Made by a program: the position numbers and the translations under genes. A stretch of 51,374 nt of DNA, taken from the sequence record NC_105433.1. The stretch is one strand, 5' to 3'. The notes below the pieces were generated by a model. The model worked only from the letters and a program-made list of their open reading frames with translations. It did no database searches and was not told where the DNA came from. This document shows positions 587 through 49,356 of this stretch, one piece after another (position 1 is the first letter of the stretch; every line of letters begins with the position of its first letter). This stretch comes from a phage.

Positions 587-2154
587 TGATCATATGGGAA
601 GATTTGACGGCGGCGCAAAAGCGAGCCATTAAAGAAATCAGTGAGCATTCATTCGAAAAGATGATCAGGATCTGGTTCCAACTATTACAGGGGCAAAAAT
701 TCCAGAGCAACTGGCATTTTAGCTTATTGTGCAGTGAGGTAGAGAAGATCATCAATGGAGAGTCGCAGAATGTGATTTTCAACATTACGCCAGGTAGCGG
801 AAAGACTGAGATTTTCTCGATCCACATGTCACCCTACGCGTCATTGAAAAGCCGGAAGGTGAGAAATCTTAACCTTTCGTTTAGTGATGGCCTTGTCCAG
901 CAAAACAGCAACCGGATAAAGGAGATTATTGGTTCTCCTGAGTGGCAAGAGCTATGGCCAGGAAAACTGGCAAAGGCGAGCGCTAAAGATCTGATAGTCA
1001 CCGAAGGCGGCAAGGTTAAATTGCAAGTTAACTCACGATCTATTGGCGGCCAGGTAACAGGTTTGCGTGGCGGCTATATGGACGATGGTTTTACTGGTAT
1101 GCTGGTTCTTGACGATCCAGACAAGCCGGATGATATGCTTTCTAAGGTAAAGCGTGAGGCTATCCACATGCGGTTAAAAAACACAGTGCGATCGCGTCGA
1201 ATGAAAGACACCACGCCGATTGTTATGGTGCAACAGCGACTACACGTTAATGATTCCACCTGGTTCATGCTTAATGGCGGAATGGGTGGTATTGAGTTTA
1301 AAGTCGTGAGCATTCCGGCGCTGGTTACGAAAGAATACCGCGAATCGCTTCCTGATTGGTTGAAGCCTGAATTTGATCGTGATGTGCTGTCAAGTAAGCC
1401 AGTGATGATAGATGGCGTTGCTCATTATTCATTTTGGCCTGCGAAGGAAAGCGCGGAGGAGTTGCTTGCATTGCGCAATGCAGATCCTTACACGTTCGCC
1501 AGCCAATACCAACAGCAACCAATCGCGCTGGGCGGGAACGTGTTTAAAACAGAGTGGTTCCAGTATTACGGCAGCGGCGAAAAATGCGCACTTCCTAAAC
1601 CGGATCGCTTTGAATACACATTTATTACTGGAGATACTGCGCAGAAGGCCGGAGAGCTTAACGACTATTCTGTTTTTTGTTATTGGGGGATGTATAAGAA
1701 TCGCGTTTACTTCATTGATGGCATTCGCGGAAAGTGGGAAGCGCCGGATCTTGAATTAAATTTTATTGCCTTCGTTAATCAGTGCTGGAAGCGCAATAAG
1801 GAGTGTGGCAGCTTGCGACGTATCCACATTGAGGATAAGGCCAGCGGCACGGGTTTGATTCAGGGGGCCAAAAAGAAGATCCCGATTGATATAAATCCCG
1901 TTCAGCGAAGCAACGACAAGGTAACGCGAGCAATGGACGCCGCGCCAGTAATGAGGGCCGGACGTGTGGCACTGCCAGAAAATCACCCAATGCTGCCTGA
2001 GATACTGGCAGAGGTTGCAGCATTCACTTTTGATGATTCTCATCCCCATGATGATATTGTCGATAATATAGTTGATGCTGTTAACGTCGAAATGAACTTG
2101 GCAGATGATCCGGTGGCAAGGATGAAAAAGCTGGCTGGTCTACGCAATAAATAG
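586..2154 (+). CDS. Terminase large subunit
   Basis: 522 aa; Walker A-like TPGSGKTE near N-terminus, acidic nuclease-type C-terminal half; order terS-terL-portal. Confidence 0.88.
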   Translation: MIIWEDLTAAQKRAIKEISEHSFEKMIRIWFQLLQGQKFQSNWHFSLLCSEVEKIINGESQNVIFNITPGSGKTEIFSIHMSPYASLKSRKVRNLNLSFSDGLVQQNSNRIKEIIGSPEWQELWPGKLAKASAKDLIVTEGGKVKLQVNSRSIGGQVTGLRGGYMDDGFTGMLVLDDPDKPDDMLSKVKREAIHMRLKNTVRSRRMKDTTPIVMVQQRLHVNDSTWFMLNGGMGGIEFKVVSIPALVTKEYRESLPDWLKPEFDRDVLSSKPVMIDGVAHYSFWPAKESAEELLALRNADPYTFASQYQQQPIALGGNVFKTEWFQYYGSGEKCALPKPDRFEYTFITGDTAQKAGELNDYSVFCYWGMYKNRVYFIDGIRGKWEAPDLELNFIAFVNQCWKRNKECGSLRRIHIEDKASGTGLIQGAKKKIPIDINPVQRSNDKVTRAMDAAPVMRAGRVALPENHPMLPEILAEVAAFTFDDSHPHDDIVDNIVDAVNVEMNLADDPVARMKKLAGLRNK

Positions 2155-2180
2155 CACTAATTGCTAAAAAGTTATATAAT
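2149..2180 (+). promoter_or_regulatory. Degenerate copy of the conserved intergenic box plus TATAAT
   Basis: aatagcactaattgctaaaaag overlapping the terL stop (TAG), followed by tataat at about 2175-2180. Confidence 0.35.
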
Positions 2181-2183
2181 CAA

Positions 2184-2208
2184 GGCTGGATTTTTCCAGC
2201 CTTTTTTA
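2184..2208 (+). terminator. Hairpin plus T-run between terL and portal (intrinsic terminator or attenuator)
   Basis: ggctgg-attttt-ccagcc followed by tttttt, immediately before the portal RBS. Confidence 0.5.
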
Positions 2209-2224
2209 TTATGGAGATTTGACG

Positions 2225-3517
2225 ATGAGTGAAAAAACAAGGCTAGTTAAGGCCGATGGATACAACGAGATTTTCAAGGGCAGCAAGGGCAATGGGCGTG
2301 TGGAGTTGCCTTTCTTTATGCAAGGGTTCGAATACACCACGCACGCTGATTTTTACATTCGCGACGGCCTAGCAAAACGAATCATCGACGTTGTTCCAGA
2401 AGAAATGGTGACGCCTGGATTTAATATTGACGGCGTGGAAGACGAGGAAAGTTTTAGATCTTTGTGGGATGAGAAGCGGCTAAACGATAAAATCATTGAT
2501 GCGCTTTGCTGGTCGCGTCTTTTTGGTGGCGCTGCAATCGTAGCAATCGTTCAGGATGGCAGGGCGTTAAAGTCACCTGTAGCGCCTGGTGCAATCCTTG
2601 AAGATGTTCGCGTTTACGATCGCTTTCAGGTTCGCGTAGAAAAGCGAGAAACTAATCCGCGCAAGGTACGATATGGTGAGCCATTAATTTACACCATTGC
2701 ACCTGGTGCCGACTTGCCAGAATACCAGGTTCACTATTCGCGAGTCTGTATCATCGACGGTGAGCGGCTACCAAATCAGCGACGTCAGTCAAATGATGGT
2801 TGGGGTGAGTCAATCCTGAATAAGCGATTGGTTGAGGCTATTTGTGATTACAACTACTGCGAAAACTTAGCAACTCAATTGTTGCGACGTAAGCAACAGG
2901 CAGTATGGAAAGCTAAAGGACTTGCCGATCTTTGTGATGATGATGATGGTGTTAACGCCGCACGTTTGCGCCTTGCTCAAGTTGATGATGAGGGTGGCGT
3001 AGGTCGTGCGATCGGCATTGATGCGGAAGATGAGGAATATGATGTTTTAAATTCTGATATTTCCGGCGTCGATTCATTCCTGGAAAAGAAGATGGATCGC
3101 ATTGTATCTCTTTCCGGCATCCATGAAATCATCCTCAAAAACAAGAACGTTGGCGGTGTTAGCGCGAGCCAAAACACGGCGCTTGAAACCTTCTACAAGC
3201 TGATCGACCGAAAGCGAAAGGAAGAATACAAACCAATCCTTGAATTTCTGATCCCGTTCCTGATTCAAGAGGAAGAATGGAGTATTCAGTTTGCGCCGTT
3301 AAGCGTTCCCAGCGAAAAGGACCAGGCCGAGATCTTGAACAAGAATATTGATTCTTTGAGCAAGGCTATTGACGGTCAATTCATGGATACAGAGGAGGCG
3401 CGCGACACATTGCGAGCCATTGCGCCTAACGTTAAACTAAAGGACGGCAATAACATTAAATTACCTGAGCAGGACGTAGAGCCGGAGCCAGGAACAACCG
3501 AGGGTAGCAATCAATGA
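2225..3517 (+). CDS. Portal protein
   Basis: ORF frame 2219..3517 begins at a TTG; first ATG with RBS (ggag) at 2225; about 430 aa downstream of terL; acidic C-terminus. Confidence 0.8.
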   Translation: MSEKTRLVKADGYNEIFKGSKGNGRVELPFFMQGFEYTTHADFYIRDGLAKRIIDVVPEEMVTPGFNIDGVEDEESFRSLWDEKRLNDKIIDALCWSRLFGGAAIVAIVQDGRALKSPVAPGAILEDVRVYDRFQVRVEKRETNPRKVRYGEPLIYTIAPGADLPEYQVHYSRVCIIDGERLPNQRRQSNDGWGESILNKRLVEAICDYNYCENLATQLLRRKQQAVWKAKGLADLCDDDDGVNAARLRLAQVDDEGGVGRAIGIDAEDEEYDVLNSDISGVDSFLEKKMDRIVSLSGIHEIILKNKNVGGVSASQNTALETFYKLIDRKRKEEYKPILEFLIPFLIQEEEWSIQFAPLSVPSEKDQAEILNKNIDSLSKAIDGQFMDTEEARDTLRAIAPNVKLKDGNNIKLPEQDVEPEPGTTEGSNQ

Positions 3518-6752: not shown

Positions 6753-6794
6753 AATAGCATAAAAAAACATTGCACGTTTAACAAAAAGTGCTAT
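6753..6794 (+). promoter_or_regulatory. Composite of forward partial box and reverse-oriented box upstream of the major capsid gene
   Basis: aatagcataaaaaaacattgcacg followed by tttaacaaaaagtgctat (reverse complement of the conserved box). Confidence 0.35.
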
Positions 6795-6840: not shown

Positions 6841-7812
6841 ATGGCTAAAAAATATGATGAACTAGATGCTACGATTGTGGCGAATCATTTGCAGATTCAG
6901 GGTGTTAAGTCCGACGCTTCTGATATGGGTATTTGGACCGCTCAAGAGCTACACAAGATCCGCTCTACCGCATACGAGAAAGAGTATCCGGCAGGTTCCG
7001 CGCTTCGCGTATTCCCTGTAACAAACGAGCTTTCTGATACTGACAAGACTTTCGAATATCAGACTTTTGATAAGGTTGGCTACGCGAAAATTATCGCCGA
7101 CTACACCGATGATCTGCCGACTGTGGACGCGTTGATGACTTCTGAGTTTGGCAAAGTGTTCCGCCTGGGTAACGCTTATCTGATCTCCATTGATGAGATT
7201 AAAGCAGGTCAGCGAACTGGCAAGAGCCTGTCAACTCGCAAGGCTAACGCTGCGCAAAATGCACATGATCAGTTGATTAACTTCCTGGTGTTCAAAGGTT
7301 CCAAGCCTCACAAGATCGTTTCCGTTTTCGATCATCCTAACCTTACGAAAATTGTTTCTAAAGGCTGGATGAGCCAGGACGGCAATACCAAGTTCCCGGA
7401 AGTGGCAAGCGATGAACTGGAGGCCGCAATCGAAACGATCGAGGAAGTAACCAAAGGTCAGCACCGCGCGACCAACATCCTGATCCCGCCGTCCATGCGT
7501 AAAGTCCTAACGGTTCGAATGGAAAATACCACTGAAAGTTATCTGGAATACTTCCAGAAGCAAAACGGCGGTATCACTATCGACTCTATCGCAGAGCTTG
7601 AGGATATTGACGGCAAAGGTACGAAAGGTTGCTTGGTTTACGAAAAAGATCCAATGAACATGAGCATTGAGATTCCAGAAGCGTTTAACATGCTTCCGGC
7701 GCAGCCAAAAGACCTGCATTTCAAAGTTCCTTGCACTTCCAAGTGTACTGGCCTTACGATTTATCGTCCGTTTACGATGGTGCTTATTACTGGCTTGAAA
7801 AAGTCAGCTTAA
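6841..7812 (+). CDS. Major capsid protein (putative)
   Basis: 323 aa; strong RBS; flanked by terminators; position after scaffold and decoration genes. Confidence 0.7.
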   Translation: MAKKYDELDATIVANHLQIQGVKSDASDMGIWTAQELHKIRSTAYEKEYPAGSALRVFPVTNELSDTDKTFEYQTFDKVGYAKIIADYTDDLPTVDALMTSEFGKVFRLGNAYLISIDEIKAGQRTGKSLSTRKANAAQNAHDQLINFLVFKGSKPHKIVSVFDHPNLTKIVSKGWMSQDGNTKFPEVASDELEAAIETIEEVTKGQHRATNILIPPSMRKVLTVRMENTTESYLEYFQKQNGGITIDSIAELEDIDGKGTKGCLVYEKDPMNMSIEIPEAFNMLPAQPKDLHFKVPCTSKCTGLTIYRPFTMVLITGLKKSA

Positions 7813-7823
7813 TCAGATAACAT

Positions 7824-7853
7824 GGGGAGCCTTAAGGGTTCCCCTTTTTTTTA
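7824..7853 (+). terminator. Intrinsic terminator after the major capsid gene
   Basis: ggggagcc-ttaa-gggttcccc hairpin followed by 8 T. Confidence 0.65.
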
Positions 7854-7870
7854 TTTATGGAGTACACAAA

Positions 7871-8137
7871 ATGAGCAAAACTTTAAAACTTAAAGTAACT
7901 GGCATTTGCATGATTATTATGGACGGTAAGCGTTATCATCCTGGTGATGAAATTGAAATTGAATCTGAACGCATTAATGATTCCGCAATTGAATACCTGA
8001 TCGCTCGCGGTGATGTGGAAGTTAAAGACAATTCCGAAATTAACGAGCAAATCAAGGCGAAAGCGGAGAAGAAGCGCAAAAAAGATCCTACCGAGGGCAA
8101 GAGCCGCAAAGAGCTAGAGGACGGCGGCGAATATTAA
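7871..8137 (+). CDS. Hypothetical protein (head region), Lys-rich C-terminus
   Basis: 88 aa ORF between capsid and connector genes. Confidence 0.45.
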
Positions 8138-8183
8138 TAATTGGGGCGCTTATGCGCCCTTTGTCACATCTGGAGAAAACAAA

Positions 8184-8603
8184 ATGGTAGATGAATTTTA
8201 CACAGACGCTGAAATCATGCAGCAAATCGTAAAGTTAGCGCCGCCAATGCAACAAGTTGATCCCGATTTAATTGTGGCATGGATTGAGCTTGCTAAAGAG
8301 TTTGTTTGCAAAAAACGGTTTAAAAACTCATACCCTAAAGCGGTTGCGCTTTACACTCTTCACCTTATGACCTTAGACGGGGCAATGAAACAGGAAGGTG
8401 AAAGCGTAGAAAGCTACTCCCGCCGCGTTGCCTCGTTCACTCTGACTGGTGAGTTTAGTCAGACGTTTGATCGAATTTCTTCCGATACAAGCGGAAAGCA
8501 GATCCGACAAACGCCGTGGGGCAAAATGTACGAAGTGTTAAACCGTAAGCACGGTGGCGGCTTTGGCCTTGTGACTGGATTGCGCCGGAGATGCTGCCGA
8601 TGA
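8184..8603 (+). CDS. Head-tail connector protein (gp6-like, putative)
   Basis: 139 aa; position and size; RBS ggagaaaacaaaATG. Confidence 0.45.
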
Positions 8604-10529: not shown

Positions 10530-10549
10530 TTTTAACAAAAAGTGCTATA
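10530..10549 (+). promoter_or_regulatory. Reverse-oriented conserved box abutting the RBS of the tail chaperone gene
   Basis: ttttaacaaaaagtgctata followed directly by aaggag and the ATG at 10563. Confidence 0.35.
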
Positions 10550-16481: not shown

Positions 16482-19400
16482 ATGGCTAAATATATGATAA
16501 GCGGCAGTAAGGGCGGAAGCAAAAAGCCATACGTGCCAAAAGAGATGGAAGATAACCTGATCTCGATAAACAAGATTAAAGTTTTGCTGGCTGTATCTGA
16601 TGGCGAGTGCGATCCAAATTTCACGTTGCGCGATCTTTATCTTGATGATGTTCCGGTTATTGCCAGCGATGGCACTGTTAACTACGAGGGAGTTACGGCT
16701 GAATATCGACCAGGTACGCAGACGCAAGATTACATCCAGGGGTTTACTGACACATCAAGCGAGGTGACAGTTTCGCGAGATATTACAGCAGACAATCCTT
16801 ATGTTATATCTGTGACAAACAAAAATCTTTCTGCAATCAGAATCAAGATTCTGATGCCAGTTGGCATGAAGCAGGAGGATAACGGCGATCTTGTTGGCGT
16901 AAGGGTTCAATATGCCGTAGATATGGCTGTTGATGGCGGTTCTTATAACGAGGTTATGAGAGATGTAATTGACGGCAAGACGAGATCAGGATATGACCGC
17001 AGCAGAAGGATTGATCTTCCTAAGTTTGATGAGCGCGTTTTAATCAGGGTCAAGCGACTGACTCCAGACAGCACATCTTCAAAGGTGACTGATAAAATCA
17101 AACTGCAAAGTTACGCTGAGGTTGTGGATGCAAAATTCCGTTATCCTCTGACTGGCCTTGTATTCGTAGAATTTGACAGCGAATTGTTTCCTACGCAAAT
17201 CCCTAACATTTCTATAAAAAAGAAATGGAAGATTATTAATGTGCCAAGCAACTATGATCCAATATCAAGAGAATATCACGGGTCATGGGATGGGACTTTT
17301 AAAAAAGCGTGGTCAAATAATCCTGCTTGGGTTCTTTATGATCTGGTAACGAATCAGCGTTATGGGCTTGACCAGCGAGAGTTAGGAATACAGATCGACA
17401 AGTGGAGCTTATACGAGGCAGGCGTTTACTGCGATCAGAAAGTTCCAGACGGTAAGGGCGGTACAGAGCCTCGCTACCTATGCGATGTGGTGATTCAGAA
17501 TCAAGTTGAGGCTTATCAGCTAATCCGTGACATTTGCTCAATCTTTCGCGGAATGAGCTTTTGGAATGGTGAGAGCTTATCAATCGTGATTGATAAGCCG
17601 CGCGATCCATCATACGTGTTTACTAATGAAAACGTCATCAACGGTGATTTTCAGTACACAACCGCAAGCGAAAAAAGCATGTACACGCAATGTAATGTGA
17701 CGTTTGACGACGAACAAAACATGTATCAACAGGACGTCGAGGGGGTTTTTGATACTGAGGCGGCATTACGATTTGGATACAATCCAACAAGCATTACAGC
17801 GATCGGATGTACACGCAGGAGCGAAGCGAATCGTCGCGGTCGGTGGGTTTTGAAAACAAACCTTAGAAGCACTACTGTAAACTTTGCTACTGGACTGGAG
17901 GGGATGATTCCATCAATAGGTGATGTGATTGCTATCGCAGATAATTTTCAGAGCAGCAACCTAACGTTAAACCTATCGGGCCGAGTGATGGAAGTTTCAG
18001 GATTGCAGGTTTTCGTTCCGTTTAAGGTTGATGCTCGTCCTGGTGATTTTATTATCATCAACAAGCCGGACGGCAAGCCAGTTAAGCGAACGATCTCAAA
18101 GGTGAGCGCAGACGGAAAAACCATTGAGTTAAATATTGGCTTTGGTTTTGATGTTAAGCCTGATACTGTTTTTGCGATTGACCGTACTGACCTTGCGTTG
18201 CAGCAATACGTTGTGACAACTATCAGCAAGGGTGATGACGAAAACGAGTTTACCTATTCAATCACGGCTGTAGAGTACGATCCGAACAAATACGACGAGA
18301 TTGATTATGGAGTAAACATTGATGACAGGCCAACTTCAATTGTTCAGCCTGACGTGATGGCAGCGCCTGAGAACGTGCAGATCTCTTCTTATTCTCGCGT
18401 CGTGCAGGGTGTAAGCGTTGAAACTATGGTTGTGTCGTGGGAAAAAGTGCCTTATGCGTCACTGTATGAAATGCAATGGCGAAAAGGTGATGGCAACTGG
18501 CTGAATACGCCGCAGACAGCTAACAAAGAGATAGAGGTAGAAGGGATTTACTCGGGGAACTATCAAGTAAGGGTTAGATCTGTTTCTGCAAGCGGGAACA
18601 CTTCCCCGTGGTCAAAGATTGCAACCGCCACCCTGACAGGTAAAGTTGGCGAGCCAGGGGCGCCGATTAATCTTACAGCTTCTGATAATGAAGTTTTTGG
18701 CATTCGTGTCAAATGGGGTATGCCGGAAGGATCAGGCGATACGGCTTACATTGAGCTTCACCAATCGCCAGACGGAACGGTTGAAAACTCAAGCCTGCTT
18801 ACGCTGATTCCATATCCTCAATATGAGTATTGGCATAGCACGTTACCAGCGGGTCAAGTTGTATGGTATAGAATCCGTAGCGTTGACAGGATCGGCAACG
18901 TTTCCGGCTGGACTGACTTTGTTCGCGGCATGGCGTCAGATGATGTTGAATCTGTTTTAGGCGACATTCTGGACAAGATTTTTGATACCGAAGCGGGTCA
19001 AGAAATCAAAGAGAACGCCATAGACAGTGCAAACAAAATCAAAGATCAGGCGCAATCAATCATCCAGAACGCATTGGCAAACGATGCTGATGTGAAGTGG
19101 ACGCGAGTACAAAACGGAAAGCGTAAGGCTGAATATGGTCATGCACTGGAGCTTATTGCTAACGAAACGGAGGCGCGAGTAACTCAAATCGAAGAGTTAA
19201 AGGCGTCAATTGATGAAGATATAGTTTCAAGTATCAAAACCGTTCAGGAAGCGATTGCCAATGAATCAGAGACGCGAGCTACTCAAGTGCAGCAGCTTGA
19301 TTCTAAATTTACGAAGGAAATAGACGGCGTAAAACGAGATACGGCTGCAAGCATTGGCGAGGTAAGGCAAACCATTACCAATGAATCAGAAGCGCGCGCT

Positions 19401-20060
19401 CAGGCCGTTCAGCAGCTTGACGCTAAGTTCACGAAAGAGATAAACGACCTTGACGGAGTTATCAAAACAGAAGTCGAGGCTAACATCTCAGAAGTGAAAC
19501 AGGCGATCGCCAATGAGACAGAGGCAAGGGTTCAGGCTGACCAGGCTTTAACAGCTAAATTCGGAGATGTTGAATCAGCACTAGCCGAAAAACTTGATTC
19601 GTGGGCTAACGTTGATTCTGTTGGCGCTAAGTACGCTATGAAATTGGGCCTTACTTACAAGGGGCAGAAGTACAGCGCAGGAATGATCATGCAGTTGTCG
19701 CAATCTTCTCAAGGCCTGATCTCGCAAATCTTGTTCGATGCTAACAGGTTCGCGATCATGACTAGCTCTACTGGCGGTACGTTTACATTGCCGTTTGTAG
19801 TAGAAAATAACCAGGTGTTTATCAACAGTTTGTTGGTGAAAAACGGGTCCATTACTAACGCAATGATTGGTAACGTGATTCAGTCAAATAACTTTGTTCA
19901 GAATCAGCAAGGGTGGAGGCTTGATAAAAATGGTAACTTTGAGAACTACGGAACGAGAGCGGGGGAAGGAGCTACAAAATTCACTAACGAAGGCTTAAAG
20001 GTGAAAGATGCAAATGGACGATTGAGGGTTGAGATAGGGAGAATAACCGGAAGTTGGTAA
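16482..20060 (+). CDS. Central tail fibre / host specificity protein (lambda gpJ-like)
   Basis: ORF frame 16431..20060 begins at a TTG; first ATG is at 16482; about 1192 aa; last large gene of the tail module; C-terminal tandem repeats of about 40 aa. Confidence 0.85.
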   Translation: MAKYMISGSKGGSKKPYVPKEMEDNLISINKIKVLLAVSDGECDPNFTLRDLYLDDVPVIASDGTVNYEGVTAEYRPGTQTQDYIQGFTDTSSEVTVSRDITADNPYVISVTNKNLSAIRIKILMPVGMKQEDNGDLVGVRVQYAVDMAVDGGSYNEVMRDVIDGKTRSGYDRSRRIDLPKFDERVLIRVKRLTPDSTSSKVTDKIKLQSYAEVVDAKFRYPLTGLVFVEFDSELFPTQIPNISIKKKWKIINVPSNYDPISREYHGSWDGTFKKAWSNNPAWVLYDLVTNQRYGLDQRELGIQIDKWSLYEAGVYCDQKVPDGKGGTEPRYLCDVVIQNQVEAYQLIRDICSIFRGMSFWNGESLSIVIDKPRDPSYVFTNENVINGDFQYTTASEKSMYTQCNVTFDDEQNMYQQDVEGVFDTEAALRFGYNPTSITAIGCTRRSEANRRGRWVLKTNLRSTTVNFATGLEGMIPSIGDVIAIADNFQSSNLTLNLSGRVMEVSGLQVFVPFKVDARPGDFIIINKPDGKPVKRTISKVSADGKTIELNIGFGFDVKPDTVFAIDRTDLALQQYVVTTISKGDDENEFTYSITAVEYDPNKYDEIDYGVNIDDRPTSIVQPDVMAAPENVQISSYSRVVQGVSVETMVVSWEKVPYASLYEMQWRKGDGNWLNTPQTANKEIEVEGIYSGNYQVRVRSVSASGNTSPWSKIATATLTGKVGEPGAPINLTASDNEVFGIRVKWGMPEGSGDTAYIELHQSPDGTVENSSLLTLIPYPQYEYWHSTLPAGQVVWYRIRSVDRIGNVSGWTDFVRGMASDDVESVLGDILDKIFDTEAGQEIKENAIDSANKIKDQAQSIIQNALANDADVKWTRVQNGKRKAEYGHALELIANETEARVTQIEELKASIDEDIVSSIKTVQEAIANESETRATQVQQLDSKFTKEIDGVKRDTAASIGEVRQTITNESEARAQAVQQLDAKFTKEINDLDGVIKTEVEANISEVKQAIANETEARVQADQALTAKFGDVESALAEKLDSWANVDSVGAKYAMKLGLTYKGQKYSAGMIMQLSQSSQGLISQILFDANRFAIMTSSTGGTFTLPFVVENNQVFINSLLVKNGSITNAMIGNVIQSNNFVQNQQGWRLDKNGNFENYGTRAGEGATKFTNEGLKVKDANGRLRVEIGRITGSW

Positions 20061-20090
20061 AAAAAGGGGGCGTGGCCCCCTTTAATTTTA
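20061..20090. terminator. Bidirectional terminator between convergent J (+) and minus-strand genes
   Basis: gggggc-gtg-gccccc hairpin flanked by an A-run upstream and T-rich sequence downstream. Confidence 0.6.
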
Positions 20091-20702
20091 ATCATAGTGC
20101 GATGAATTTATAACCAAAACAGATGATGCCGTGTAAATACCAACAGGACCAGAAGTTTGCGCAACCTGCCTAGATAAAGAATATACCCCGTTGCCATAAG
20201 CGGCAGCTTGAGACTCAAATATCATGAATCCACCTAAAGACGGATTGGGCACAGAGTTTAAAGCTGTTAGTGATGGCATGATGGCGCAAGGGTATCCCAA
20301 GTTAACGTCAAAAGCGATCCCGCTTACAGATACAAGTTTTGCATCCAAAGGCTTCATCTTTCCATGATAAACCATCTCACCATTAGCATTATAAAAAGCT
20401 ATTCCGTGACTACCAGGAGGAGTAACCATGTTGCTAAAAGCATAAACAAATACCTCGCCTTGATTGTCTGACTTTTCTATCTTTATTGCGTGCTTCCCAC
20501 CATTATTAAACTGAGTAAATGCTATGTATGATTTTGATGTTAATCTTACAAAAAAGAAGCACGGTCTATTTATTGGTATAGAAGTATTAAAAACGGTTCC
20601 TGTTCTTGCTGATATTTTCCCTTTATCTATAAGGTTAACAGGAGTGAAATCTGGACTTAACCACAATGAACCGTCTGGTTTTTTTATGCTCATTCCGTAC
20701 AT
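20088..20702 (-). CDS. Hypothetical protein, third gene of the lipoprotein operon
   Basis: ORF 20088..20714 begins at a TTG; first ATG at 20702 with RBS ggggg; about 204 aa; start overlaps the stop of the upstream gene. Confidence 0.5.
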   Translation of the reverse strand: MYGMSIKKPDGSLWLSPDFTPVNLIDKGKISARTGTVFNTSIPINRPCFFFVRLTSKSYIAFTQFNNGGKHAIKIEKSDNQGEVFVYAFSNMVTPPGSHGIAFYNANGEMVYHGKMKPLDAKLVSVSGIAFDVNLGYPCAIMPSLTALNSVPNPSLGGFMIFESQAAAYGNGVYSLSRQVAQTSGPVGIYTASSVLVINSSHYD

Positions 20703-20704
20703 TA

Positions 20705-20983
20705 TTACCCCCAAAAAGTATATATATATCTTGAGTCAGATCCAGAAAGGCCACTCCATGTAACGGTATCACCACTTACACCCAACTTTGGAGCGCCTGG
20801 ATCGCCTCCTCGCCACGAATTCATTCCAACATATATTGCTTTCAAAGACTTACCTGGAGGCCTGTTTGAGTAGGTCTTACTGCCGGATGATTGAGTAAAT
20901 TTATCCAAGAAAAAAACTGGAGTTAAAAGGCCAGTAACATTTCTACCTTGCTCATCATATATTGCATACCCATATTCAGCCAT
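20705..20983 (-). CDS. Hypothetical protein
   Basis: 92 aa; RBS gaggtg; translationally coupled to its neighbours. Confidence 0.5.
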   Translation of the reverse strand: MAEYGYAIYDEQGRNVTGLLTPVFFLDKFTQSSGSKTYSNRPPGKSLKAIYVGMNSWRGGDPGAPKLGVSGDTVTWSGLSGSDSRYIYTFWG

Positions 20984-21251
20984 TTTTGCACCTCAAATCA
21001 ATGAATTTTCTTTCATCTTGCCAACGGTTGATAAATTTAACTTCTTTATTGTCAACGCTCAACCTGTATTGCTTTTGGCTGAATCTGTTTTCGCGTACCG
21101 CATTAATTTTAACTTCATGGAATCCGTTAACAGGGAATGTTTTAACGTTAAATTTTGCCGTGCAATCGATCTCCTTGAAGTTGCCAGTAGGCGAAGAAGA
21201 ACATCCGGTCAGGGCTGCTACGGTGGCGATAACTGCGATTAATTTTTTCAT
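20976..21251 (-). CDS. Lipoprotein, candidate Cor/Llp-like receptor-blocking superinfection exclusion protein
   Basis: ORF 20976..21257 begins at a TTG; ATG at 21251 with RBS aaggggg; signal peptide with lipobox LTGC; about 91 aa; antisense to and adjacent to the tail genes. Confidence 0.5.
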   Translation of the reverse strand: MKKLIAVIATVAALTGCSSSPTGNFKEIDCTAKFNVKTFPVNGFHEVKINAVRENRFSQKQYRLSVDNKEVKFINRWQDERKFIDLRCKNG

Positions 21252-21283
21252 CTTCAATACCCCCTTAGTTGTTGTTGGCTGTA

Positions 21284-21327
21284 ACTATACACGATCCGGC
21301 AAGCCGAGTTTAGCAAAAAGTGCTACT
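21284..21327 (-). promoter_or_regulatory. Box-type promoter for the lipoprotein operon
   Basis: On the minus strand: gtagcactttttgctaaa, about 21 nt, then tatagt, then RBS and ATG of the lipoprotein gene. Confidence 0.45.
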
Positions 21328-21419
21328 TGTTATTTTTTGTTTTCCGGTGTTATCGGATTTAAGACGGCGTAAATTTAGCGCAAATTTTAGCCAACATAAG
21401 AACAATAAATAATCAATAA

Positions 21420-21615
21420 AATAGGTATATACATATAAAATCAATAGTTTATTTATTTATGTATGTGTATTTGTTTTTTCTTGTTATCTGTGTTTCTTGT
21501 GGTTTTGGTTGTTTGTGGTGATTTTTCTTTCTGAGTATCTGTATGTGCCATCATTCATGTGTATGTATATAATCCGGCGTATCTGAGAGAACAAGGGAAC
21601 AAGAAAAATAACACA
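21420..21615 (+). repeat. Noncoding block A, homologous to block B at 42480..42690
   Basis: Ordered sub-blocks: atttatttat AT-rich run, G/T-rich run (tgtgtttcttgtggttttggttgtttgtggtg), then gtatgtatataatccggcg...aacaagaaaaataaca. Confidence 0.6.
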
Positions 21616-21695
21616 TATTAATCATTAACTTACGCGTAAAATTTGTTTTATTGCCATCTGAGAACGTTTAGAAAACAGAAAAAACAAAACAACTA

Positions 21696-21723
21696 TTGAC
21701 TAAATCAACCAAATGGCTACAAT
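21696..21723 (+). promoter_or_regulatory. Near-consensus sigma70 promoter (TTGACT, 16 nt, TACAAT) for the recombination operon
   Basis: ttgact at about 21696-21701 and tacaat at about 21718-21723; RBS gaggag; ATG at 21754. Confidence 0.65.
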
Positions 21724-21753
21724 GCACACACAAAGCAACGAGGAGCATTAAAG

Positions 21754-30283: not shown

Positions 30284-30702
30284 TGGCTATAACTGATAAA
30301 GGCGATTATCTTGAGTTTTACGAAAGGGATCCAACCGACACGAGAAGGGAAGTTAATCACCAGATAGATAGTTTTCAGTGGTTGAGTTATGCTCATCCTT
30401 ATTTGCTGGCGTGGCATACGGTAAACGAGAATGAGAAGTCTAAAGCAACGGCGATGATTGATCAGCAGTCCGGCTTGGTTAAGGGAGTAAGCGATTTCAT
30501 CATCCTGATTGGTTTAAACGGAAAATACCCCTTTGCAGCTATTGAGATCAAACGAGTGAATAAATCAGGCAAGGGGAAAGCATCACCAGTCAGCGATGAA
30601 CAAAAGGCTTTTTTGCGTCGCGTTCGCAGCTTAGGAGGATTCGCTGCGGTAGCCTACGGATTCAATCAGTTTAAGTTGGCTATTGAATACATGCTTAAAT
30701 AG
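30283..30702 (+). CDS. VRR-NUC-type nuclease (putative)
   Basis: 139 aa; ATGA overlap with the helicase; ...SDFIILIGLNG...AIEIKR segment resembles the PD-(D/E)XK core; by recollection only. Confidence 0.45.
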   Translation: MAITDKGDYLEFYERDPTDTRREVNHQIDSFQWLSYAHPYLLAWHTVNENEKSKATAMIDQQSGLVKGVSDFIILIGLNGKYPFAAIEIKRVNKSGKGKASPVSDEQKAFLRRVRSLGGFAAVAYGFNQFKLAIEYMLK

Positions 30703-30742
30703 CACTTTTTGTTAAAACTGGCGCGATGGATTGCGCCATAAT
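30698..30742 (+). promoter_or_regulatory. Box-type promoter cassette (box, hairpin, CATAAT)
   Basis: aatagcactttttgttaaaac overlapping the upstream TAG stop; hairpin ggcgc-gatggatt-gcgcc; cataat 22 nt after ttgtta. Confidence 0.5.
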
Positions 30743-37822: not shown

Positions 37823-37868
37823 ATTATGCCAGGTTTTTACACCTGGCTTTTAACAAAAAGTGCTATTT
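37823..37868 (-). promoter_or_regulatory. Box-type promoter cassette (box, hairpin, CATAAT)
   Basis: Minus strand: aatagcactttttgttaaaa, hairpin ccaggtgtaaaaacctgg, cataat, then RBS aaggag. Confidence 0.5.
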
Positions 37869-40373: not shown

Positions 40374-40393
40374 TTTTAACAAAAAGTGCTATT
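40374..40393 (-). promoter_or_regulatory. Box copy overlapping the stop of 40389..40730
   Basis: Plus strand ttttaacaaaaagtgctatt; downstream leader shares tattacacccatcgacaac with two other leaders. Confidence 0.45.
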
Positions 40394-42816: not shown

Positions 42817-43281
42817 ATGGAACAGAAGACCACTAAGGACTATTGCGATTGGCTTCGCGAGCTTGGTCGCCGCCTGGCTAGTGGCGATATTGAAGAGTAT
42901 AAAATGTCACTAATTGACCTGGCCGGAATGTTAAGCGGTGACGACTGCTACAAGATCACGCGCAGTTCATCCTACAGCCGGACCATTATCAACCGCGTTC
43001 CAGAAGTAAGGGCCGCAGGTCGGGTAAGTATCAAGGTCGAGGAAACGGAAGATGATAAATTTTACGTTTTCCGCATGGTGCGCGAATCAAAAAGGAAAAT
43101 CATCACACCAGAAGAATTGCCAGCAATCAAGGCAAGGGCGATCAAAAAGTTTGCCGATCGCTTACTGGCAGCAATCCCGAACATCGTTGACCTGGAGGGT
43201 GATAAACTGGCTGGAGCTTGTGAGGGCGTAAGCCGCTACCAGGATATGATCCGCGAAATCATCAAAGAGGAGGAGCAATAA
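42817..43281 (+). CDS. Hypothetical early protein (first gene after the consensus promoter)
   Basis: Frame of ORF 42784..43281 (whose first ATG lies inside the -10); ATG at 42817 with RBS ggagg; about 154 aa. Confidence 0.55.
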   Translation: MEQKTTKDYCDWLRELGRRLASGDIEEYKMSLIDLAGMLSGDDCYKITRSSSYSRTIINRVPEVRAAGRVSIKVEETEDDKFYVFRMVRESKRKIITPEELPAIKARAIKKFADRLLAAIPNIVDLEGDKLAGACEGVSRYQDMIREIIKEEEQ

Positions 43282-43541
43282 TGAAAAAGGCATTAATCGG
43301 CGTTTTGGCGGCAATGACACTCCTGACCGGATGCGAAAAGGCATCAGAATCAACGGTTGTCGTAGGCGTGGAGTCAGATTTCAAAGTCGGTCGCCTGTTC
43401 ACTGTTGACGGATGCACAGCATACAGATTCTATGATAACGGTCGCGCGATCTATTACACCAATTGCAAAGGCGCAACGGATAGCACGTACAACAGCGGAA
43501 AGAACGTAATGCACCAGCAAGTCACAACAGATATTAAATAG
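43281..43541 (+). CDS. Lipoprotein (early), candidate superinfection exclusion factor
   Basis: 86 aa; ATGA overlap with the upstream gene; signal peptide with lipobox LLTGC; two further Cys. Confidence 0.5.
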   Translation: MKKALIGVLAAMTLLTGCEKASESTVVVGVESDFKVGRLFTVDGCTAYRFYDNGRAIYYTNCKGATDSTYNSGKNVMHQQVTTDIK

Positions 43542-43581
43542 CACTTTTTGTTAAAACGCCAGGCGCAAAGCCTGGCATAAT
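43537..43581 (+). promoter_or_regulatory. Box-type promoter cassette (box, perfect hairpin, CATAAT)
   Basis: aatagcactttttgttaaaac over the TAG stop; hairpin gccaggc-gcaaa-gcctggc; cataat 22 nt after ttgtta. Confidence 0.5.
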
Positions 43582-45983: not shown

Positions 45984-46697
45984 ATGAAAAAATACACTTT
46001 CGAACTGTGGGGCAAGAAGTACGAATTAATCACCAGCAAGCCGATTGTTATCGTTGACCTGGACGGCACACTATCGGACGGATCGCATCGTTTGCATTTG
46101 CTGCCAACTGAAAACTTGCACCTTACGGAATCGTGGCGCGAGTTTAACAGGGCCGCCGCCGGAGATTCACCGATTAAAAGCACTATCGCGGTTATTAACG
46201 GTTTATGGGTGTCGGGATTTGCCATCGTCATCTTGACCGGACGCAGCGACGAGGTTCGCTATGAAACCTGCAAATGGTTGAATGAGAACGGCGTGAAGTT
46301 TGACGAAATCATCATGCGCCGCCAGGAGGACAACCGAAAGGATACGGTTATTAAAGAAGAAGCCTTGCGCGCTATTGGCCTGGACAACATTGTTTGCGCC
46401 TTTGACGATTCGCCGAACGTGGTTAAGCACTTCCGCAGCTTGGGGATCACAACCTATCAGGTCACGGAATACGACAAGCCACACGCTCACATACAATCTC
46501 ACGGCGTGGAATCAATCAAGATCACGAAGCGCGCCCGATTCGTCGGCAGCAAAGACAGCCTGGTCAATGCCAGCTTTATCAAAGGCAAGGTTTATGATGT
46601 TCATAGCCATGATAAAAACAGATTCTTTTTGTGGGATGAAAAAGGTTTTGGCTGGTGCTTTGAACACGACGACGGCGATTTTGTTAATGCGGAATAG
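45984..46697 (+). CDS. HAD-superfamily phosphatase (nucleotidase or Pnk-phosphatase-like, putative)
   Basis: Frame of ORF 45969..46697; ATG at 45984; HAD motif I VIVDLDGTLSDG; stop embedded in the box. Confidence 0.5.
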   Translation: MKKYTFELWGKKYELITSKPIVIVDLDGTLSDGSHRLHLLPTENLHLTESWREFNRAAAGDSPIKSTIAVINGLWVSGFAIVILTGRSDEVRYETCKWLNENGVKFDEIIMRRQEDNRKDTVIKEEALRAIGLDNIVCAFDDSPNVVKHFRSLGITTYQVTEYDKPHAHIQSHGVESIKITKRARFVGSKDSLVNASFIKGKVYDVHSHDKNRFFLWDEKGFGWCFEHDDGDFVNAE

Positions 46698-46743
46698 CAC
46701 TTTTTGTTAAAACAGATTGTCGGGCTTGCGGTATAGTAAGCCC
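46693..46743 (+). promoter_or_regulatory. Box-type promoter cassette with hairpin-enclosed TATAGT
   Basis: aatagcactttttgttaaaac, 22 nt, tatagt in the loop of gggctt...aagccc. Confidence 0.5.
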
Positions 46744-49307: not shown

Positions 49308-49356
49308 TAGCACTTTTTGTTAAAACTTCCGCAAGGGCATTTGATAAAGTGCCCTT
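49306..49356 (+). promoter_or_regulatory. Box-type promoter cassette with hairpin-enclosed -10-like hexamer
   Basis: aatagcactttttgttaaaac, then perfect stem aagggca / tgccctt with loop tttgataaag (taaagt 22 nt after ttgtta). Confidence 0.45.

Follow-up and report, generated by a model that had tools for sequence, protein, structure and literature searches.

A predicted BtuB-type receptor-specificity cassette next to the tail fibre gene of a T1-like Escherichia coli phage

In small siphophages, the loci downstream of gpJ encode a receptor-binding protein (RBP) and a cognate exclusion protein, and the alleles of these loci match the terminal receptor of the phage without exception (Maffei et al. 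2021; PMC8594841). A 2026 preprint based on 1,050 genetic screens confirms the match between allele and receptor. The BASEL supplementary table lists BtuB as the receptor of Bas04 (Warwickvirus) and Bas06 (Hanrivervirus), and FhuA as that of Bas05 (Warwickvirus) and Bas07. Dependence on BtuB has also been reported for Dhillonvirus PTXU06, and a 2026 paper describes Cor-like proteins in BtuB-dependent Tempevirinae. According to its citation in PMC13164509, Wietzorrek et al. had noted the cor cassette of T1, N15 and phi80 in 2006. Two further systems bear on the present case. The RBP of Oekolampad, solved by cryo-electron microscopy (cryo-EM; PDB 9rpt; bioRxiv 10.1101/2025.07.07.663478), binds LptD at its extracellular face, and a relative of the Oekolampad lipoprotein, Rtp45, is a proven exclusion factor that acts on LptD from the periplasmic side, in a complex that has been solved. 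In phi24B, a preprint combining cryo-EM and proteomics (bioRxiv 10.64898/2026.04.10.717836) detected gp54 (204 amino acids, aa) in virions and proposed a gp54/gp55 heterodimer at the needle tip as the RBP candidate, with BamA as the proposed receptor. Here we examine a 51,374-nucleotide stretch of phage DNA (sequence record NC_105433.1; hereafter the window), in which a three-gene operon on the minus strand encodes a lipoprotein, a 92-aa protein and a 204-aa protein. We regard it as probable that these are an exclusion lipoprotein, a partner protein and an RBP, made from one transcript and together constituting a BtuB-allele cassette.

Cassette alleles and the terminal receptor

The window region is 98.9% identical in nucleotide sequence to Escherichia phage tonijn and 86.6% identical to Bas04 (FritzSarasin), and the JLBYU Warwickviruses are 97% identical across the first 25 kb of the window. 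Judged from these identities, the window is a T1-like E. coli phage of the Drexlerviridae, Tempevirinae, genus Warwickvirus. A sequence-only reading of this DNA had noted three minus-strand open reading frames (ORFs) converging on a J-like gene, and all three were found where it placed them: the cassette (20088-21251) lies between the end of J (20060) and the start of an exonuclease VIII-like gene (21754), a layout that is alike in Bas04, Bas05 and Bas06.

The window shares its antisense three-gene layout, in the same order, with Bas04, Bas06 and Dhillonvirus Zar3M. Identities of the RBP, partner and lipoprotein are 88, 92 and 94% to Bas04, 63, 73 and 56% to Bas06 (KarlJaspers), and 58, 71 and 54% to Zar3M. 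The lipoprotein homologue of PTXU06 is 53% identical to that of the window (a comparison covering the lipoprotein gene only), and the JLBYU Warwickviruses, which have been reported as not FhuA-dependent, are 97% identical over the cassette locus. On these comparisons the locus is most likely the BtuB allele of the T1-like receptor-specificity cassette, and its 204-aa product would bind BtuB. The sequence-only reading had drawn analogies with Cor and Llp; the idea of an exclusion module survives, whereas the FhuA receptor implied by those analogies does not, since the allele belongs to BtuB-dependent phages.

Comparison with Bas05 (PeterMerian) separates the cassette from the fibre. The Bas05 J protein is 94.8% identical to that of the window over 1192 aa, but the interval from J to the exonuclease gene holds a different cassette, in which genes for 103- and 197-aa proteins (34% and 24% identical to the 92- and 204-aa proteins, respectively) are co-directional with J and are followed on the opposite strand by a 75-aa true Cor, whose likeness to the window lipoprotein is limited to the signal peptide. 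Given that J is so similar and the cassette so different, it is the cassette, not J, that carries the difference between FhuA and BtuB. The two J proteins differ at 62 positions, 16 of them within the last 53 residues, in keeping with a docking surface that has adapted to the cassette; the RBP pair presumably docks on the last ~50 residues of J.

The predicted receptor-binding protein and its partner

The 204-aa protein matches phrog_425 (E 9e-51), the family of T1 gp31 and N15 gp23. The database label of this family is 'membrane associated protein'. Neither the 204-aa nor the 92-aa protein has a signal peptide or a transmembrane or hydrophobic segment, the maximum hydropathy over 19 residues being 0.59 and 1.36, respectively. 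An AlphaFold2 model of the 204-aa protein, calculated from an alignment of 18 homologues, is all-beta, with a pLDDT (predicted local distance difference test) of 85.9 and a predicted template-modelling score (pTM) of 0.81; only the first ~20 residues are disordered, though they are highly conserved. In structure comparison the model shares the fold of the solved Oekolampad RBP (PDB 9rpt chain C). BLASTP found no significant similarity between this RBP and either the 92-aa or the 204-aa protein, so the link from the 204-aa protein to the Oekolampad RBP is structural only. A Foldseek search of predicted viral structures yielded 22 further uncharacterised phage proteins with the fold of the 204-aa model. 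The sequence-only reading had suggested that the two proteins downstream of the lipoprotein could be receptor-binding or accessory proteins, and had looked to structure prediction for a check. The confident model with the fold of a solved phage RBP, the homologue in phi24B virions and the published locus all agree with that suggestion.

Residues 1-25 of the 204-aa protein are 64-100% conserved across all types and form a putative attachment segment. Residues 146-195 are 92, 66 and 54% identical to BtuB-type proteins (92% for Bas04, 66% for Bas06), and 10-14% identical to the alleles of Shiga toxin (Stx) phages, JenP2 and the IMG/VR loci L013 and L016; the allele of locus L084 is intermediate (30%). 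Judged from this pattern, residues 146-195 are likely the receptor-contact part. The 204-aa protein is thus best described as an RBP with predicted specificity for BtuB.

The 92-aa protein matches phrog_557 (E 2.8e-21), the family of T1 gp32 and N15 gp22. Pairwise identity of the two window proteins to those of T1 is only 23%. In all 80 of the 80 related loci found in IMG/VR, the gene for the 92-aa homologue directly precedes, on the same strand, that for the 204-aa homologue. The pairing holds after J in either orientation, after the needle gene of podophages, and in ~100-kb contigs resembling plasmid prophages. This invariance makes the 92-aa protein an obligate companion of the RBP, as an adaptor or an assembly factor. 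Detectable homologues of the lipoprotein are absent from 71 of the 80 loci, and no lipobox ORF was found near the pair in five representative loci of the types lacking one.

Short motifs suggest how the pair might be held on the fibre. The N-terminus of the 92-aa protein carries the motif YGxAIYDxxGxxV, which occurs twice in the RBP. The fibre proteins that precede the pair have a common C-terminal motif, I/L-x-V-[YKR]-D-x-N-G-x-L-R-V-x-I-G-R, which resembles the motif of the 92-aa protein and RBP and is present even in the otherwise unrelated needle of phi24B. The C-terminus of the window J (19900-20060) carries LKVKDANGRLRVEIGRITGSW, common to the other fibre proteins in this position, whereas the LptD-type J of Bas18 has a different C-terminal end. 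We infer that the pair attaches to the fibre through beta-hairpin contacts. Other fibre genes with the motif lie at 2044-3312 in locus L008, 576-3692 in L013 and 33-3500 in L084. The possibility that the 92-aa protein is a paralogue of the N-terminal domain of the RBP was considered and not established, as the hhalign alignment covers only a 15-residue motif at 6% probability.

Several further observations concern the pair as a unit. In a fold search of BFVD, three ~95-aa phage proteins (G3ENB8, A0A6J7WUE6 and A0A9E7C725, the last a 'tail fiber protein' of Pseudomonas phage PP9W2) matched a ~95-residue stretch of the 204-aa model, with target-normalised template-modelling scores of 0.55-0.63; this model-based match hints that small partners such as the 92-aa protein may be single-domain relatives of the RBP. 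At 40-54% identity, the pair occurs in Shiga-toxin podophages, a lambdoid prophage (L013), Nonagvirus JenP2 and the ~100-kb plasmid-prophage-like contigs, usually after the central fibre or needle gene and with no detectable lipoprotein homologue. The unit crosses morphotypes. Its coordinates are 7686-8587 in locus L004 and 3324-4228 in L008 (Stx2 II, phi24B), with further examples in the IMG/VR loci L013-L083. A third arrangement is found in the IMG/VR loci L084-L088 (44-47 kb), where J, a lipoprotein (33% identity), a 91-aa protein and a 204-aa protein follow one another on one strand.

The lipoproteins and the transcription signals

Both lipoproteins have a signal peptide with a lipobox of the form [LVI][ASTVI][GAS]C, and the lipoprotein signal check gave a weak match to LPAM_1. 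The first lipoprotein carries the lipobox AALTGC at residues 12-17 followed by Ser at +2. Under the rule of the Lol pathway, Ser at +2 directs a lipoprotein to the outer membrane. A profile search of 1.84 billion representatives recovered only 25 relatives, all of 83-108 aa, and in the family (24 members) the lipobox cysteine, Cys30 and Cys88 are invariant. Outside the BtuB-type cassettes of Warwickvirus, Hanrivervirus and Dhillonvirus, homologues occur only at a few metagenomic siphophage loci.

Any relation of this family to Cor would be distant. The full protein matches phrog_1119 (Cor) at E 6e-8, and the BLASTP alignment with T1 Cor is limited to residues 1-34. We rejected Cor as the family assignment, as the PHROG match is lost upon removal of the signal peptide. 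Cor has the same framing of the mature domain by an N-proximal and a C-terminal cysteine, and when the mature domains are aligned by hhalign both cysteines fall into register (E 1e-4), a weak match with a probability of only 29%; the Cor alignment was built from eight GenBank phages, since the IMG/VR search gave close T1 relatives only. Fold comparison with T5 Llp (PDB 8a60 chain B, 7qjf) gave a weak match that does not discriminate. Membership of neither the Cor nor the Llp family is demonstrable, and a Cor- or Llp-like action is suggested by its setting: its position in the operon, its covariation with the RBP allele, and the analogy with Cor/FhuA, Llp/FhuA and Rtp45/LptD make this predicted outer-membrane protein the putative cognate exclusion factor. 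By the same analogies, its point of action is probably the periplasmic side of BtuB.

The second lipoprotein has its lipobox at residues 14-18 and Glu at +2, and its start codon overlaps the stop of a preceding 165-aa gene, so that the two are translationally coupled. It matches phrog_6360 (E 1.2e-11 over its full length, 1e-5 with the mature part alone) and scores 24.7 bits against Pfam DUF4884, for which the cutoff is 30; it is related to these families, to which no function is assigned. This protein exists as two alleles (~99% versus 47% identity) in Warwickviruses whose identity elsewhere exceeds 95%, which points to recombination at this early gene independently of the receptor cassette.

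The tight packing of the three cassette genes suggests a single transcript with translational coupling. A GGGGG Shine-Dalgarno sequence stands 8 nt upstream of the ATG of the lipoprotein gene; a TTG at 21257 was dismissed as the start, being too near to this sequence. Upstream lies a version of an 18-nt box (TAGCACTTTTTGTTAAAA) that occurs 19 times in the window, against 0.12 copies expected by chance, and 11 times in the T1 genome. In every copy inspected, a -10-like hexamer follows after 18-19 nt and a Shine-Dalgarno sequence with ATG comes a few dozen bases after the box, and the box with its TATAGT-type hexamer is kept ahead of the same operon in Bas04 and Bas06. Examples are found at 30700-30717(+), 37848-37865(-), 40374-40391(-), 43539-43556(+), 46695-46712(+) and 49308-49325(+); the copies at 6776-6793(-) and 10530-10547(-) are antisense within the late structural cluster, as in T1. 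The genes behind the copies are mostly non-structural. The box may represent a phage-specific promoter class or a regulator-binding site, and the 'box-type promoter' that the sequence-only reading placed here has gained support from its recurrence, its constant spacing and its retention in relatives. A sigma-70 consensus scan of the minus strand upstream of the operon found no promoter. TTGCTA was rejected as a -35 partner of TATAGT, as a 21-nt spacer would be needed, and the box is read as an upstream element instead. A literature search on the box returned unrelated papers only.

The hairpin between the two convergent units, found by a terminator scan of the plus strand, has T-runs after its stem in both directions. 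Folded as minus-strand RNA, it has a free energy of -15.7 kcal/mol (z -3.7) and is followed by UUUUUUU. It reads as a bidirectional intrinsic terminator, common to the J-like gene and the antisense operon.

Features of the receptor cassette and the second lipoprotein gene in the window
Feature	Coordinates	Strand	Remarks
J-like central tail fibre / tail-tip gene	16482-20060	+	1192 aa; most likely ATG 16482
G+C-rich hairpin GGGGGCCACGCCCCC	20063-20083	.	between the two convergent transcription units
204-aa gene (predicted RBP)	20088-20702	-	begins 2 nt past the 92-aa stop; own GGGGG Shine-Dalgarno
92-aa gene (partner)	20705-20983	-	ATG overlaps the lipoprotein stop (ATGGCTGA)
Lipoprotein gene	20976-21251	-	ATG start at 21251; 91 aa, MKKLIAVIATVAALTGC...
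-10-like hexamer TATAGT	21284-21289	-	18 nt downstream of the box
Promoter-type box TAGCACTTTTTGCTAAAC	21308-21325	-	two mismatches to the phage-wide 18-nt box
Second lipoprotein gene	43281-43541	+	86 aa; lipobox LLTGC, two further Cys

Two observations lie outside the cassette itself. A 500-bp A+T-rich spacer (21252-21753) separates the operon start from the exonuclease VIII-like gene; it holds two sigma-70-like promoters on the plus strand (21545-21573 and 21696-21723), a degenerate box copy on the minus strand (21666-21678) and, in one related record, three annotated tiny ORFs. In addition, the 'Campylobacter phage' records MG065643, MG065649, MG065657, MG065680 and MG065681 (49,946 bp) contain the E. 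coli Drexlerviridae cassette together with the second lipoprotein, and their host labels are probably wrong.

Alternative readings and comparison with described cassettes

Put together, these elements would work as follows. One transcript would start at the box-type promoter and end at the hairpin shared with gene J. The lipoprotein, once exported and lipidated, would put the terminal receptor of its own phage out of use by binding to its periplasmic side, thereby excluding superinfecting phages and sparing progeny from loss on cell debris. The soluble 92-aa protein would most likely form a heterodimer with the RBP or help to mount it on the tail tip. The N-terminal ~25 residues of the RBP would hold it, by non-covalent contacts, on the C-terminal tip of the J fibre, a trimer, and its variable segment (~146-195) would contact the extracellular face of BtuB, leading to irreversible adsorption.

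Several observations weigh against this account. For homologues of the 204-aa protein at 45% identity the proposed receptor is BamA and not BtuB, so belonging to the family is not enough to tell which receptor is used. The tip of J and the receptor are not strictly linked, as Bas06 uses BtuB and has a T1-like tip. The NCBIfam Cor model NF047972 scores 18.6 bits on the lipoprotein against a cutoff of 31, and phrog_1119 finds no match in its mature part. No standard sigma-70 -35/-10 pair of normal spacing lies upstream of the operon, so that promoter function is read only from the recurrence of a motif. The counterpart of the 92-aa protein, gp55, was undetected in phi24B virions, which would allow a pure chaperone role. 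Finally, exclusion and BtuB binding are, for this phage and this lipoprotein family, what we infer from the comparisons above.

The cassette might work as described and yet serve a receptor other than BtuB, either FhuA, by the analogy with Cor and Llp, or another outer-membrane protein. The proposed binding of BamA in Stx phages would be consistent with this, as would the association of the 204-aa family with FhuA in T1 and Bas05 (~24% identity) and the 12% divergence of the 204-aa protein from that of Bas04. Set against these are the likeness of segment 146-195 to two BtuB-dependent phages (92% to Bas04, 66% to Bas06), the relatives that are 97% identical over the locus and do not depend on FhuA, and the published surveys in which the alleles match the receptor without exception; taken together, they make another receptor quite improbable. 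A different role for the 92- and 204-aa proteins, as membrane-associated helpers of the exclusion lipoprotein in a superinfection exclusion (Sie) machinery and not as virion proteins, strikes us as hardly credible. The KanT1 paper assumed a Sie-related role for the T1 homologues, for which it had no structural matches, and the pair is co-transcribed with the lipoprotein from a promoter of non-late type. Neither protein, however, has a signal peptide or hydrophobic segment, a homologue is present in phi24B virions, most loci (71 of 80) have the pair without a lipoprotein homologue, with no nearby lipobox ORF in the five representatives, and in T1 and Bas05 the pair stands in the late tail operon directly after J.

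It is also conceivable, if unlikely, that the first lipoprotein is no receptor blocker at all, and has another envelope function, for example as a moron or fitness factor, as an accessory in lysis or by keeping DNA from entering after adsorption. Such a function would sit poorly with its leading place in the RBP operon, where its gene overlaps the one that follows, and with the fact that Rtp45, the proven LptD blocker, and the Oekolampad homologue hold the same position. Moreover, a true Cor takes its place exactly where the RBP allele has been exchanged, its homologues occur only in the BtuB-type cassettes of three genera, and both cysteines of its mature domain are in register with those of Cor (E 1e-4). 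The sequence-only reading had named it a candidate for superinfection exclusion, which the published locus type supports; Cor family membership, at 18.6 of the required 31 bits, could not be upheld. The same reading had paired it with the second lipoprotein, which implies another receptor blocker. That gene is real and has the lipobox LLTGC, and a small exported lipoprotein with two further cysteines, encoded by the second gene of an early-looking arm, could in principle act in this way. Its sequence, however, does not track the terminal receptor: identity is 98% and 92% in the FhuA phages Bas05 and Bas07, 55% in the LptD phage Rtp, and 47% in the nearest relatives with the BtuB cassette, tonijn and JLBYU10. 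As it shows no such link, a receptor-blocking role has nothing to support it; the occurrence of relatives in phages of Pseudomonas, Serratia, Pantoea and Xanthomonas and the match to a function-unassigned family (phrog_6360; DUF4884 below cutoff) also speak against one, and we judge a second receptor-directed exclusion factor very unlikely.

We thus retain the BtuB-allele cassette as the best explanation. Such a cassette decides the outer-membrane receptor and shields infected cells and progeny from wasteful adsorption; the sister phage Bas05, with a J that is 95% identical, has another cassette and uses FhuA instead of BtuB. Being self-contained and swappable, the unit lends itself to the prediction of receptors from sequence and to host-range engineering. 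The practical result is an annotation as BtuB-type RBP, partner and putative cognate exclusion lipoprotein, in place of the misleading labels 'membrane associated protein' and 'outer membrane protein'. The type of locus is already known, the cor cassette having been noted in 2006 and the map of alleles to receptors published in 2021. The modest additions made here are the fold link between BtuB-type and LptD-type RBPs, the pairing in 80 of 80 loci across siphophages and podophages, and the shared docking motifs. A recent preprint called the RBP families for different receptors in small siphophages unrelated. We tentatively offer a broader proposal, which we hold to be possible rather than probable: that the RBPs for FhuA, BtuB and LptD, and perhaps the BamA-directed gp54, are one portable superfamily docking by a YGxAIYDxxG beta-hairpin onto the J/needle motif; that the pair of 92- and 204-aa proteins is the two-chain version of the LptD-type RBP; and that the lipoprotein founds a BtuB-directed exclusion family, a distant disulfide-framed relative of Cor.

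A sequence search of the PDB with the three cassette proteins returned nothing useful, and Pfam and NCBIfam gave nothing above threshold for these and the second lipoprotein. The gp55-gp54 pair of phi24B and other 933W-type Stx podophages is homologous to the window pair (53% and 45% identity) and follows a needle gene whose C-terminus has the same motif as the window J. Unlike the window, phi24B is a podovirus with no adjacent lipoprotein homologue, and segment 146-195 is only 14% identical. The Llp/pb5 system of T5, directed at FhuA, has BtuB-specific counterparts in T5-like phages; pb5 is unrelated to the window RBP and much larger, and no T5-like phages were found among the homologues of the first lipoprotein. 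Oekolampad (Bas18) has the same layout: an antisense operon runs towards J, and its gene for the exclusion lipoprotein comes before that for the RBP. The LptD RBP (Oekolampad/Rtp44 type) is a single chain, of 321 aa as the annotated coding sequence and of 309 residues in the paper, and lacks a small partner gene; no sequence similarity to the window is detectable, and the J tip and the receptor differ.

The FhuA-associated cor cassette of T1, N15, phi80, HK022 and ES18 has the same three components, including phrog_557 and phrog_425, and is likewise placed after J. The pair of T1 and Bas05 belongs to the late operon and runs in the direction of J, with cor alone antisense, whereas in the window all three genes form one antisense operon. 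Identities to the T1/Bas05 cassette are only 23-34%, and the window further differs from T1 in its associated receptor (BtuB instead of FhuA), in its box-type promoter and in a mature lipoprotein that is not detectably Cor. The closest match is the BtuB-type RBP locus of Bas04, Bas06 and Zar3M (PMC8594841; bioRxiv 10.64898/2026.04.02.716166), where the same three genes, likewise antisense and in unchanged order, are flanked by J and the exonuclease VIII gene. From this locus the window shows no substantial difference; it is another isolate with the same allele.

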